A DNA stretch of 43,472 nucleotides from a virus (IMGVR_UViG_2737471820_000002), one strand, 5' to 3'. Positions 1 to 31,430 are shown, counted from the first letter of the stretch. Notes: generated by a model not told the origin, from the sequence alone. Program-made: numbers and translations.

Positions 1-1275
1 TTAATCACTCAACGTCTTTAATTCTTTGAGCAATTTAGCTTTATCATCATCATTTTTAATAGATGAGATAATCTTCTCAGTTAATGCTAACAATCTAACG
101 AACATTTCGTTTAGCTCTTCATCGTTAGGTGTTTCTATACCATGAAGTAAGTTATTTCTGATTCTTTTAAAATAGTTTAGTTCAAATGACTCTTCTCGCG
201 TCAGCACTCCGTCAGAAACCAATGGCTCAAATTTTGCGGTGAAGAATTTTTTGTGCTGGCGATTGTTTTGATTATGAATTAAAGAGACTGCTTTTTCTAG
301 TAAAATCCATGTTTTAACAAATGACTCAAACCCTGATACATCCTTATGTTCCCCAAGAGCACGTTTGAAATAACTTGAAAGTTTTAAATTACCTCCAACG
401 CTCTTGTATGAATCATTAATAAACATAAGAAGCAATTGATCTGTGATTGTTTCTTTTTCACTTTGATTAATTTTACGCAAATATTCAGAAAGTTCACTGA
501 CGCTTATGCTAGAATTACCCTTGAGATAATTAAATAAAATTTTAGTATCACCTAATTTAAGTTTGCTTATATAATTCTTATTTAGTGAGTTGGTTATAAA
601 ACTCGTTAACTCATATCTATTTGAAATATTATCTTTTTCTTTAGTTCTTTTTGCTATGGCTTTTTGAAGTCTTTCAAGAGCTATTTCGCCAGTAAGCACT
701 AATCCATTAATCTCATCTAGAATTGCAAGTTCCTCTTCAGATAAATCGCCTGCTAGAGGTTTGTAAACAAGGTCATGTTCGACTTCGGACCAGGCATGCA
801 TAAGAACCGATGCTACTTGAATCTCAAATAATGCACTTTCGTAACGCTTATTATTTTGGTTAGAGTTTTTCAAATTGACACGATAATGAGATGCCCAGTA
901 ACCAGAGAACCTTTTTTCAAATTTAGGTTTATAAGATGCTTCTGGAAAGTTTTTCTTTTTCCGGACATTAAATAAAAAATTAATAGTTTCATCAACTACT
1001 TCTCTATCTTTTGGAAAATATAAAGCTACTCGAACACCGGCCAGGTCGAAAATATCTTCATATATATTAGCAACATCTGCATATGCTGACTTTTCATTTC
1101 TTTGATTAAGTTTTTGTTCTAAGCGGTCTGGTCGCTTAGCTCTGAATGAAACTATGGCTTTAATCCCTCTCTTTTCCAATTCCTGCTCGAGCAAGCTTGA
1201 GCCTATTTTTGCCAACTCAGAATAGTAATCATACTGCTTGCTATATTGTTCTAAAAAATCTTTTATGACACTCAT
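1..1275 (-). CDS. RelA/SpoT-family nucleotidyltransferase fused to a C-terminal HEPN-like domain (toxSAS/CapRel-like candidate defence protein)
   Basis: N-terminal region has synthetase-type motifs (FRAKRPDRLEQKL, DIFDLAGVRVALYF, EIQVASVLMHAWSEVEHDLVYK); C-terminal region ends with RIRNNLLHG, matching the HEPN RNxxxH signature; AGGAG-type RBS about 13 nt upstream of the ATG; very AT-rich. Confidence 0.6.
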   Translation of the reverse strand: MSVIKDFLEQYSKQYDYYSELAKIGSSLLEQELEKRGIKAIVSFRAKRPDRLEQKLNQRNEKSAYADVANIYEDIFDLAGVRVALYFPKDREVVDETINFLFNVRKKKNFPEASYKPKFEKRFSGYWASHYRVNLKNSNQNNKRYESALFEIQVASVLMHAWSEVEHDLVYKPLAGDLSEEELAILDEINGLVLTGEIALERLQKAIAKRTKEKDNISNRYELTSFITNSLNKNYISKLKLGDTKILFNYLKGNSSISVSELSEYLRKINQSEKETITDQLLLMFINDSYKSVGGNLKLSSYFKRALGEHKDVSGFESFVKTWILLEKAVSLIHNQNNRQHKKFFTAKFEPLVSDGVLTREESFELNYFKRIRNNLLHGIETPNDEELNEMFVRLLALTEKIISSIKNDDDKAKLLKELKTLSD

Positions 1276-1655
1276 AGAGACTAACTACTCCTTGTATAAG
1301 AAGATTGAATCGAATGATAAAGAAACCTAACGAACTCTAGATGAATGGGTGATAGATTATCCACTTTTGGCACTGTGATAAAGCATTTTTCTGATGAGAT
1401 CTTCCTTGCAAATGAAACTATAACATACTTTGATTATTAATATTAAACAATAATTAATGGCTGTGTTTTTTCACCATAAGGATATCTGAAGATATGTCCG
1501 CTTCTGGCACATAGCAGACCAGAGACACTGGCGTAAAGCCATGGAGGATCGGTGGGAGGAGGTAAAAATCCTCTCATGCAAAAAATATGCAAAATCGATA
1601 ACAGTTGGAAATCATTCAATACTCGCACTATCGGAAGTTCACCAGCCAGTCGTAG

Positions 1656-1700
1656 CACGTTCTTGCATACGACGTGGCTACGGGTTTCGAGACCGACCCG
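1656..1700. repeat. Copy A of an imperfect direct repeat / hairpin element (core TTCTTGCATACGACG)
   Basis: agcacgttcttgcatacgacgtggctacggg sits inside an inverted repeat (cgtagc...gctacg); a second copy lies at 2670-2712. Confidence 0.4.
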
Positions 1701-1823
1701 ATCATCAAACGAAACATAAAATTAGCTCACCTTATGAGGAAAGGTATCTTTTTTCGCTATGTAAATTCAAAGGGTTAGCCTCATTTTCCCGATGGCTTTC
1801 TCAACACTACTAGTTGTGAGCCC

Positions 1824-2648
1824 TTGCAATGTTCATTAATATACGTCTCACAAATAATTCACAGATATTGCAAAATGGATATTACTGAGTTTCCTTCTGG
1901 AGTAATTGAACACCTTGGCTGGTATGTATACCGATTGATTGATCCTAGGGACGGAAGCACCTTCTATGTAGGGAAAGGCAAAGGTAACCGCGTATTTGCC
2001 CATATGCGCGGTGAAGTGGCAGCGGCTGATGATGACGAGTTACTGAGCAACAAGCTAAAGCAAATCAGAGAAATAAGATTAGCGGGACTTGAAGTTATCC
2101 ATGTCATCCATCGACATGGAATGACTGATGAAAAGACGGCGTACGAAGTTGAAGCAGCACTTATTGATGCCTACCCTGGGTTAACGAATATCATGAATGG
2201 TGCTGGCAGCAATGAATTCGGCGCCGCGCATGTCAAAGAGTTGATAGCAACATATCAACCCGAAACCATAACATTTCATCATAAAGCATTAATGATTTCC
2301 GTTAACAGAAGTGCAAAGGATTCAGAGCTTTATGATGCGGTTCGATTTAGCTGGCGCATTAATGTCTCTCGCGCCAGCCAAGCAGAAGTCATTCTTGCTA
2401 CTGTAAGGGGGATCGTTCGAGGGGTTTTCATTGCTGATAAATGGCTCAAATCAACACGTGAAAATTTCCCTACGATGAAATACTGGGACGAGGATCCGGA
2501 CTTTGAGGCAACACAAAGTTCTCGCTATGGTTTTGAAGGTCGAGAAGCCCCACCTGAAATAGCAAATCTTTATCTTGGAAAAAAAATACCAGATGAATTA
2601 AGAAAAAAAGGAGCTATGTCCCCGGTCCGTTACTCACCTAATTTTTGA
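1824..2648 (+). CDS. GIY-YIG domain nuclease family protein (possible start at 1875)
   Basis: [29 protein letters not shown] is a typical GIY-YIG motif; an alternative ATG at 1875 gives MDITEF...; no clear SD for either start. Confidence 0.6.
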
Positions 2649-2669
2649 GTCTTTAAGTGATAAGCATAA

Positions 2670-2712
2670 ACCGCAGCACGATCTTCTTGCATACGACGAG
2701 CCTGCGGTTTCA
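2670..2712. repeat. Copy B of the imperfect direct repeat / hairpin element
   Basis: gcagcacgatcttcttgcatacgacgagcctgcgg is flanked by inverted arms aaccgcag / ctgcggtt; it overlaps the stop codon of the invertase remnant. Confidence 0.4.
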
Positions 2713-29476: not shown

Positions 29477-29490
29477 ATAAGACTCAAACA

Positions 29491-29853
29491 TCATTCATCT
29501 CCCAGTTCAGTGATGGTCAGTTCCAGCTTCCCACCTTTGGTAACAGGCATCTTCACAACGCGGTAATCAACGACCAGCTCATCATCCAGCCAGAAACCTG
29601 CTTTAGTGAGTGCGTCAAAAGCGGCTTTTTGCAGATTATCCAGGTCACGGCGACGGCGATCCGGCATGTGGCACTCAATGCGGATTTTCACAGGCATAGC
29701 CAGACCGATATCCAGCATTGAGCCTTTAATGATTCGGGCGACGTTATCGCGGTATGCCTGCCCTTCTGCGCTGATGTGCGTGCGCCCTCGATTATGGCGG
29801 TAGTAGCGGTTATTGCTCGGCGGCCAGGGTAGTGTGATGTGGTAAGTATTCAC
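29491..29853 (-). CDS. rusA: Holliday junction resolvase RusA
   Basis: [26 protein letters not shown]... near-identical to DLP12 RusA. Confidence 0.9.
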
Positions 29854-30140
29854 GCCTTAATTACCCCCTCTTTCAGCCAGATAACCTGCGTTCTCGCCAT
29901 ACCTTCCAGCGCGCATTCTTTTGCATATCCAGCGTCAACAAACTGCGTGCGGCGGTCGATTTCGTCGTGGCAGGCAGAACATGCAATGGTGGCAATCAGG
30001 TCTGGCGGTTTGATACCGGTACCGCACAATCCAGCCAGCCGGATATGTGCCAGTACAGACGTCTCAGAATTGCCATTACATACGCCAGGGATTCTTACCT
30101 GGCATTCCCGACCACGCGCTGCTTTTCTCAAATCAGCCAT
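29850..30140 (-). CDS. YbcO-like (DUF1364) putative nuclease
   Basis: [33 protein letters not shown]... with a Cys cluster; start at internal ATG 30140. Confidence 0.6.
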
Positions 30141-30303
30141 GATTCCTCCTTGCTGCCAGTCGCAACCATTTTTTATCAACCAGGCTAGCGGTATATCCGA
30201 GCAGTGTTGGTATTTCGGATGGCTTCAGCTCAGGCTTACGCTTACGACGATTAGATACTCTGTAGATGTGTCCGTTCATGACACGAATAAGCGGTGTAGC
30301 CAT
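30133..30303 (-). CDS. NinE-like small basic protein
   Basis: 56-aa [59 protein letters not shown], overlapping both neighbours; below the ORF-track threshold. Confidence 0.4.
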   Translation of the reverse strand: MATPLIRVMNGHIYRVSNRRKRKPELKPSEIPTLLGYTASLVDKKWLRLAARRNHG

Positions 30304-30758
30304 TACGCCTCCTGCTTGTCGCGGAGCAGCTGGAACTCGCAGCTCTGCGGAATAGTCAGGTGGCAGCCAATATTCATCGCCCAGGCTTCAACCTTACACA
30401 GGAAGACATACATCTCTCCGGTATCGAGATCGGAGGTATGACGTAATGACTGAATGGTGGTGATTTCACCGGTTACGACATCAACCAGTTCTTTGGTTTC
30501 ATAACCGAGATAAGTGTGTTTGAGAGCATCTTTTACCCAAGGTGGAGTGGCGAACGTTTTACCCCTGCTGATGAGGTATTCACTGATTTCGCTGTACCAC
30601 ATGTGGCTGAGTGCATTCTGGGAAAGACTGCGTCTCTCGCGCCACGGTTTAAGCACCATGCGAAAGCATTTGCCGTCCTCCAGATAAGGCTGGATCTGCT
30701 GACCGATAGCGGTGAAGTTACCACGATGCAATTTGATGCCATCTTGTAGGAGGTTCAC
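30303..30758 (-). CDS. YbcN-like (DUF1367) nin-region protein
   Basis: 151 aa starting [15 protein letters not shown]..., resembling DLP12 YbcN. Confidence 0.55.
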
Positions 30759-30947
30759 GATTCACCTCCGCAGAGGTCAAACGCTGGATGCAAAAAATCG
30801 CAGGTGCATTTCTGCATCTGTGACAGCAAAAGAGAGTTTAGATTGTATGTGCGCATAAACGTCCCCGTTTAGCGCAGAAGTCACCGATGTTGTTCAGGCT
30901 CCGGTGACATTATTATTGCTGGTTGATTATGGAAAATCAAAGGTAGA

Positions 30948-31430
30948 TTAATTTAATAATCCTTGGAGAAATCTCACGCACCACCTCAATAGTTGCGCTT
31001 GCTCTTGAGAATCAACAAAAAGATAAGCGTCTTTATTTCCGTGGAAAAGGTTATTTCTTATCCTTATAACTATCTTTAATACTGTAGACATGGTGTTTAG
31101 ATCTGTTGCTGCGTCATTTTGAAGTCCATTAACTATTCCCCGCCTATCTCTCTCTCGACCGACACAGAGGGCGTCAAGTCTTTCCTGCGCATCCCCATTC
31201 AAAATGTATCTCTGCTTAAAATCGTGAAAAAGTTCGTTGGGCACCTTTATCCCGGCGTCAAGTAACGTTCGCGCATAATTTAAACTGTCTTCCCCCTTAG
31301 CAAAGCCACCAAAAAAACTTTGCTCGACCCTAGGAAAAATCATGCAGAATTGAAGATAAACATCAATCAGTTCATCAGATGGAGGCTCCGATAAATTAAG
31401 TAACCGCTGCAGTCCTTCTGCACTTATCAT
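30948..31430 (-). CDS. HEPN-domain protein (predicted RNase toxin-like), gene 3 of the nin-region cassette
   Basis: 160 aa; C-terminal RIRNNLFHG matches the HEPN RNxxxH motif; AT-rich; start ATG overlaps the upstream small-ORF stop (ATGA). Confidence 0.55.

Follow-up and report, generated by a model that had tools for sequence, protein, structure and literature searches.

The viral sequence IMGVR_UViG_2737471820_000002 (43,472 nucleotides in all, referred to here as the window) is an E. coli prophage of the lambdoid type, roughly 42 kb long and integrated at tRNA-Thr (thrW). Two of its genes, lying ~30 kb apart, encode nearly the same nine residues: RIRNNLLHG in a 424-residue protein that joins a RelA/SpoT-type domain to a second, C-terminal domain, and RIRNNLFHG in a standalone 160-residue protein encoded in the nin region. 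Judging from residue conservation in each family, this stretch is very probably the catalytic Rx4H motif of the HEPN ribonucleases (RNases) (an R, a polar N, three further residues, an H and a G), found in two cargo genes that were acquired independently. The two proteins represent two distinct HEPN-type families, each of which conserves catalytic-type residues, occurs in mobile-element or defence settings and has its own, independent distribution. Members of a known superfamily are expected to have such an RNxxxHG stretch in common, which makes the resemblance as originally posed an ordinary one that should not be taken as a sign of domain shuffling or of partnership.

The initial annotation of this DNA had drawn attention to the two nonapeptides, described them as lying at the same relative position with a helical-looking tail after each, and proposed either that one HEPN-type domain had been reused in both loci or that the two proteins were functionally linked, for example as decoy or partner. 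Both open reading frames (ORFs) and both peptides are present as it described. In a six-frame comparison of every stop-to-stop segment of the window that reached 100 amino acids (110 segments, 21,199 amino acids), no other two 9-mers agreed at 8/9 positions or more, and the match is therefore not a background event. The agreement in position is a rough one: the motif lies at 87% of the length of the fusion vs 77% of that of the 160-residue protein, with 45 vs 29 residues after it.

In HEPN families of the Abi type, the motif usually takes the form (I/L)RNxxxHG. HEPN domains have been defined by an Rx4-6H motif with a polar residue (N, D or H) after the R and a second conserved acidic residue upstream; the motif terminates helix 3, ahead of the loop that leads to helix 4, and the families otherwise share little (Anantharaman et al. 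2013, PMC3710099). Where an HEPN domain follows a nucleotidyltransferase (NTase) and acts as a mere substrate-binding module, the motif has typically been lost (PMC3710099), and the HEPN RNases require dimerisation to be active (PMC13000451).

For the fusion, we built one profile from 34 full-length homologues at 51–86% identity and another from their C-terminal 125 residues. Across these homologues, E327, N374, H378 and G379 are invariant and R373 is at least 90% conserved, with E327 set in the context W-x-[IL]-[LF]-E-K. The family consensus at the motif is R[QR]IRN[YQN]LLHG; since position 375 varies among N, Q, Y, E and F, RNNL in exactly this form is confined to the enterobacterial/vibrio clade, and the residue two positions after H378 (I, V, F or Y) is unconserved. 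The C-terminus of the window protein itself matches no Pfam model, and a profile search of Protein Data Bank (PDB) sequences with this region gave nothing meaningful. Among the homologues, 21/34 match the HepT-like model (best E 3.7e-6), 18/34 match DUF4145 and 12/34 match HEPN_Swt1, and PF01934 is a precomputed assignment for several. The conserved residues and the homologues' matches together make a strong case for a HepT/DUF4145/Swt1-like HEPN domain.

The N-terminal domain of the fusion retains the RelA/SpoT residues R45, K47, D77, G80, R82, Y126, H130, E151, Q153, E166, H167, Y171 and K172, which are invariant in the same 34 homologues. Its closest solved sequences are the small alarmone synthetase (SAS) enzymes 2be3, 3l9d, YjbM/RelQ and YwaC/RelP (E 2.5e-8 to 1e-4); when the fusion profile was run against all PDB sequences, SAS of the RelQ/RelP type were recovered and no toxSAS chain appeared at E up to 1. 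The domain also carries an invariant EIQVAS (residues 152–157; window about 805–822 on the minus strand) where two aligned SAS sequences, 2be3 and 3l9d, read EIQIRT, a substitution that may reflect a substrate or chemistry differing from (p)ppGpp synthesis. In PADLOC v2 the N-terminal half alone matches PDC-S33 (E 2e-8, residues 23–163) and there is no full-length model; the same half also matches phrog_9640. A homology search with the fusion gave 2621 proteins at E 0.001 or better. The best 120 of these are 417–450 residues long, save one partial sequence, share at least 51% identity (range 51–99%) and come from Enterobacterales, Vibrio, Aeromonas, Shewanella, Colwellia, Bacteroidota and Calditrichota. 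No paper dedicated to a RelA/SpoT–HEPN fusion was found in the literature searched.

The 160-residue protein belongs to a family of nearly always standalone proteins of about 160–190 residues, for which one search returned 174 representatives and another 577 clusters. We used one profile of its close relatives and a deeper one of 56 diverse relatives at 20–41% identity. In the latter set E36, R74, R123, R125, N127, H130 and K133 are invariant, Y75 also counts among the invariant residues that lie outside the HEPN definition (together with R74, R123, N127 and K133), position 126 is N in most of the sequences listed and H or C in three, and the core signature is [YF]RLRNNLFHG[EN]K. An AlphaFold2 (AF2) model made from the 56-sequence alignment has a predicted local distance difference test score (pLDDT) of 93.9 and is all-helical, with nine helices; it supersedes a run with 9 close homologues that was unusable (pLDDT 44). 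The helix spanning residues 110–130 ends at H130 and is followed by helices 133–138 and 141–159, in agreement with the helical tail suspected at the outset, and the invariant E36 lies in helix 19–40, with four helices between it and the motif helix. The 160-residue protein thus fits the published description of HEPN domains (PMC3710099): its penultimate long helix ends in the motif, a Glu lies upstream and an insert separates the two.

Database searches with this family gave few matches. The 160-residue protein itself hits nothing in Pfam, NCBIfam or PADLOC. Two of the 56 relatives match HEPN_RiboL-PSP (PF18735; E 1e-4, none at the gathering score), one of the 56 matches SWT1_3rd, and there are sporadic matches to DUF4209; in 10 further relatives no HEPN model was matched, and PADLOC on ten relatives gave two marginal matches (PDC-M01A, 0.007; Cas13a, 0.017). 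Two UniRef names label relatives as Apea-like or RiboL-PSP HEPN. A fold search with the AF2 model against solved structures returned non-specific matches, and a profile search of PDB sequences with the family returned nothing meaningful. The HEPN-type reading put forward for both proteins thus holds strongly for the fusion and as the probable one for the 160-residue protein, whose family appears, from its sequences, to be a separate branch for which there is no curated model.

The likeness between the two proteins stops at the motif. BLASTP aligns 9 residues. With hhalign, the two families align over 28–29 columns at a probability of 27–45%; with the deeper small-family profile the alignment covers 16–18 columns at 62–78% (12% in global mode), and with the fusion's C-terminal profile it covers 16 columns at 78%. 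Neither method gave a whole-domain alignment in which the two proteins are each other's nearest relatives. At the DNA level, 19/27 nucleotides are identical in the motif, with the differences at synonymous sites, and 46/105 in its surroundings, values that speak against any recent DNA exchange between the two genes. The conserved upstream Glu lies 46 residues from the motif in the fusion vs 89 in the 160-residue protein. The window also encodes a third HEPN-clan protein, a DUF4145 protein with the motif LGNHGSHG, and profile comparison of either family with it showed no relation, in a single-sequence test that is weak.

The two genes are also distributed separately. A search of 5426 complete E. 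coli genomes found the fusion in 3 records (two strains) and the small gene in 56, with an overlap of 0. In the assembly collection, the exact proteins account for 209 index blocks (fusion) vs 2726 (160-residue protein), an approximately 13-fold difference, and none of 23 loci fetched carries both genes. Close relatives of the 160-residue protein come from Enterobacteriaceae alone, and those of the fusion from Vibrio, Serratia, Aeromonas, Bacteroidota and others. A tblastn search of 50,697 phage records gave no match to the small protein and one remote match to the RelA domain of the fusion. That single record (PQ189320.1, positions 6778–7317, 27.6% identity; 'Vibrio phage 10N.261.45.F7_PE002A') is 8.1 kb long, a size that would fit a phage satellite or other small element. 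The complete E. coli genomes with the fusion are those of strains T16R and YY76-1, in which IS26 truncates the prophage and the end bearing the GIY-YIG and RelA–HEPN genes survives; the IS26 region of T16R contains fosA3, rmtB and blaTEM-1.

Each gene has its own surroundings (Table 1). The fusion gene is the final gene at the prophage end opposite the integrase and tRNA-Thr, and the window begins at its stop codon. In E. coli the exact fusion occupies a constant prophage end, next to a GIY-YIG gene and to the yagP/paoD side of the host; the GIY-YIG gene lies beside it in 10/10 E. coli places, separated by some 600 bp of AT-rich intergenic DNA. These prophages vary in their tail-fibre and early regions, and two of them are IS26-truncated remnants. 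The GIY-YIG gene is not beside the fusion homologues in the Serratia or Vibrio loci examined. In Vibrio the fusion gene stands alone, with long intergenic stretches around it, in integrase islands with varying neighbours that include Mrr, Abi_C, EcoRII, HipA and type I restriction–modification (R-M) genes.

The 160-residue gene lies between the replication genes O/P and the NinB-like YbcN and antiterminator Q genes, the full order being O, P, a winged helix-turn-helix gene, DUF4145, a DNA polymerase III theta pseudogene, the 160-residue gene, a 33-residue ORF, NinB-like YbcN and, later, Q. The theta pseudogene, interrupted by an internal stop in the E. coli records, overlaps the start of the 160-residue gene by 4 bases, and a Salmonella prophage in which theta is intact (82 residues, PF06440; locus L009, 5756–6004) has the identical 4-base overlap. 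Since the DUF4145–theta–160-residue cassette is kept in 10/10 E. coli places with the exact 160-residue protein, among which the immunity and Q modules vary, these two HEPN-type genes travel together. We considered the GIY-YIG neighbour and theta as obligate partners and rejected both, as neither is conserved beyond the E. coli/Salmonella prophages.

Farther afield, a genome scan with a tighter 15-sequence alignment of the small family found 80 loci in many phyla (for example L032, 1393–6720; L030, 2516–5502; and L024, 3117–4498). The close same-strand neighbours vary by locus and are typical defence genes: at one locus a TIR gene of the CAP12/PycTIR type, at another HsdS upstream and HamA (Hachiman) downstream, at another an 863-residue ABC-type ATPase upstream and a 730-residue Piwi/prokaryotic Argonaute (pAgo) protein downstream, and elsewhere DUF6602, HerA, a 993-residue AAA_21 ATPase, a MORC-like HATPase and TPR proteins.

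The GC content is 32.6% for the fusion gene and 40.8% for the 160-residue gene, vs 49.7% for the whole window, and such marked AT richness fits moron or cargo genes gained by horizontal transfer. Scans for promoters and terminators near the two genes found fewer sites than in shuffled sequence and were uninformative. At its right edge the window ends in a host gene of the aldehyde-dehydrogenase family. Three other genes deserve mention. A porin gene (Porin_1, E 3.6e-152; 27614–28696, plus strand) lies just downstream of the Q antiterminator gene on the opposite strand; this is a lambdoid lysogenic-conversion locus, and it is present in related prophages too (loci L114 and L116). An Acyl_transf_3 acyltransferase cargo gene (3122–4213, plus strand) near the tail-fibre end is exchanged for a pin-type invertase module in other related prophages (loci L106–L108). 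Finally, an N6/N4 DNA methylase cargo gene occupies 25639–26691 on the minus strand.

Table 1. Features of the window that bear on the two HEPN-type genes; positions are counted from the first nucleotide of the window.
Feature	Position	Strand	Basis or remark
RelA/SpoT–HEPN fusion gene, 424 aa	1..1275	-	ORF and translation; RefSeq 'GTP pyrophosphokinase'
C-terminal HEPN-type domain of the fusion, about aa 305-424 (strong assignment)	4..363	-	Conserved residues; Pfam matches of homologues
RIRNNLLHG, very probable Rx4H motif of the fusion, aa 371-379	139..165	-	Translation and family conservation
RelA/SpoT nucleotidyltransferase (SAS-like) domain, aa 45-172	760..1143	-	PF04607, E 1e-13
LEM-3-like GIY-YIG nuclease gene, divergent neighbour of the fusion gene	1875..2648	+	PF22945; RefSeq
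Standalone HEPN-like gene, 160 aa (phrog_27260), nin region	30948..31430	-	ORF and translation
RIRNNLFHG, probable Rx4H-type motif of the 160-aa protein, aa 123-131	31038..31064	-	Translation and family conservation
DNA polymerase III theta (HolE-like) pseudogene	31427..31675	-	RefSeq 'internal stop'
DUF4145 (third HEPN-clan) gene, 250 aa	31687..32439	-	PF13643, E 7.9e-12; RefSeq
Integrase gene	40851-42014		Adjoins tRNA-Thr
tRNA-Thr	42029-42104		Integration site

From these settings and conserved residues we infer RNase activity, a role in defence and a mode of regulation. The fusion would be a self-contained abortive-infection module, resembling a fused toxin–antitoxin, in which the HEPN RNase would be the effector and the RelA/SpoT-type domain its controller; that control might act through a covalent modification or through steric obstruction, as happens in HepT/MntA and the fused FhepTA, or through production of a nucleotide signal. 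The 160-residue protein, given that its family is embedded in varied defence operons, would be a portable RNase-type effector or accessory, and both proteins would be metal-independent RNases. A more ambitious version, argued from analogy and in our view improbable, is that the fusion combines a nucleotide signal and HEPN-RNase immunity on one chain, a pyrophosphorylated nucleotide made or transferred by the alarmone-synthetase-like domain activating the protein's own RNase on infection, and that the 160-residue protein stands for a new group of portable HEPN effectors on which pAgo, Hachiman/R-M, TIR and ATPase operons draw, as do lambdoid phages.

Of the two explanations originally offered for the shared peptide, recent copying or shuffling of one HEPN domain between the loci can be all but dismissed: it would account for eight of nine residues being identical in the only such window pair, and both genes are indeed AT-rich cargo, but nothing can be aligned beyond 16–29 columns, the codons of the motif differ at synonymous sites and its flanks have diverged, the spacing from Glu to motif and the best Pfam affinities differ, the fusion's exact RIRNNL is limited to one clade, and each family has its own deep and separate phylogenetic spread. 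A functional link, in which the small protein would pair with the fusion's HEPN domain as decoy, inhibitor or co-factor, fares hardly better and is very unlikely. It draws on the dimerisation that HEPN RNases need (PMC13000451), on the presence of both genes in this one prophage, and on the placement of the small gene in the early-lytic nin operon with the fusion as a separate transcription unit; the distribution does not bear it out, as the E. coli records do not overlap, the small gene is far the more widespread of the two, the fusion occurs in genera and phyla outside the Enterobacteriaceae to which the close relatives of the 160-residue protein are confined, and the constant partners of the small gene are DUF4145 and theta rather than the fusion. 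Any linkage in draft genomes with an intact prophage of the window type would reflect common prophage descent.

Two other alternatives concern the nature of the proteins themselves. The 160-residue protein might be an unrelated helical protein, such as a nucleotide- or protein-binding regulator or an immunity protein, in which RxRNNLFHG.K arose by convergence. We consider this unlikely: the lack of a curated HEPN model and of a specific fold match would be explained, as would the invariant residues beyond the HEPN definition, and a small constant operon partner of variable large proteins is a pattern known for regulators too, but R-x4-H with N or H after the R, a penultimate long helix that ends in the motif, the invariant Glu and the large insert are all in the published HEPN description, the family profile aligns its motif with that of a HepT/Swt1-like domain at 78% probability, and the sporadic RiboL-PSP, SWT1, DUF4209 and Cas13a matches and the two UniRef names point the same way. 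The most serious competitor, although still well short of an even chance, is that the toxin of the fusion is its RelA/SpoT domain (by toxSAS-like tRNA pyrophosphorylation or (pp)pApp synthesis), the HEPN-like C-terminus serving as an autoinhibitory sensor as in CapRel. Prophage-encoded fused toxSAS with a C-terminal regulatory domain do exist (CapRel; PMC13000451), the synthetase motifs are invariant, and it is the N-terminal half that matches PDC-S33 and phrog_9640; yet R-N-x3-H-G and E327 are invariant across phyla, which favours a catalytic HEPN domain, NTase-fused substrate-binding HEPN domains typically lose their motif (PMC3710099), and the solved sequences matched at E up to 1 were of housekeeping SAS rather than toxSAS.

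Four points weigh against the reading that we prefer, that of two independently acquired HEPN RNase genes. The HEPN assignment of the fusion's C-terminus is a sequence-based one; the literature searched contained no biochemical or phenotypic data on either protein; the E. coli cases of the fusion without the small gene are few and come from IS26-degraded prophages in complete genomes (those in other genera are clean); and the co-occurrence count covers complete E. coli genomes rather than draft genomes with an intact prophage of the window type. Two modest by-products of the comparison, both candidate conflict systems, matter more than the shared peptide: an uncharacterised, widely transferred and highly conserved single-gene RelA/SpoT–HEPN architecture in defence islands, and an uncharacterised small HEPN-like family, covered by neither Pfam nor PADLOC, whose members turn up repeatedly in pAgo, Hachiman/R-M, TIR and ATPase operons. 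Both candidates, if true, would extend the catalogue of prophage-encoded immunity.

Among known systems, both proteins resemble the HEPN superfamily RNases (PMC3710099) in having Rx4H with a polar residue after the R, the following G and an upstream Glu, in showing scant conservation between families and in occurring in defence or mobile-element settings; they differ in that neither window protein itself reaches a curated HEPN Pfam model and, for the 160-residue family, in the absence of any model and in the extra invariant residues noted above. That family comes closest to the RiboL-PSP-HEPN and Apea-like HEPN proteins of the Abi-type clade, with which it shares (I/L)RNxxxHG, small size, R-M and defence operons and weak profile matches, and from which it is set apart by the few sub-threshold hits to PF18735.

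For the fusion, the nearest characterised parallel to the proposed logic is offered by HepT/MntA and FhepTA, in which the NTase AMPylates a Tyr beside the motif and so blocks HEPN dimerisation (PMC13000451). As in FhepTA, an NTase-fold domain precedes a HepT-like HEPN domain in one mobile-borne chain, a plausibly self-neutralising architecture (PMC7641770; PMC13000451). However, the NTase of the fusion is a RelA/SpoT-type pyrophosphokinase (PF04607) rather than a minimal nucleotidyltransferase (MNT), ~130 residues of helical linker take the place of the 3–5 residues in FhepTA, and the position corresponding to the AMPylated Tyr of the HepT Rx4HxY motif does not conserve Tyr; for these reasons we place it outside the HepT/MntA–FhepTA family. 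Like toxSAS/CapRel, the fusion is encoded by one gene on a prophage and joins an N-terminal domain resembling RelA/SpoT synthetases, with conserved catalytic motifs, to a second, C-terminal domain; unlike CapRel, it ends in an HEPN-type domain with an intact motif instead of the CapRel antitoxin domain, and its N-terminal domain is nearest to RelQ/RelP SAS, with EIQVAS where the two aligned SAS sequences have EIQIRT. Finally, and by analogy only, OAS–RNase L and Cas10–Csm6/Csx1 also couple an NTase that makes a nucleotide signal to an HEPN RNase effector; the fusion, unlike these, would put both activities on one chain.

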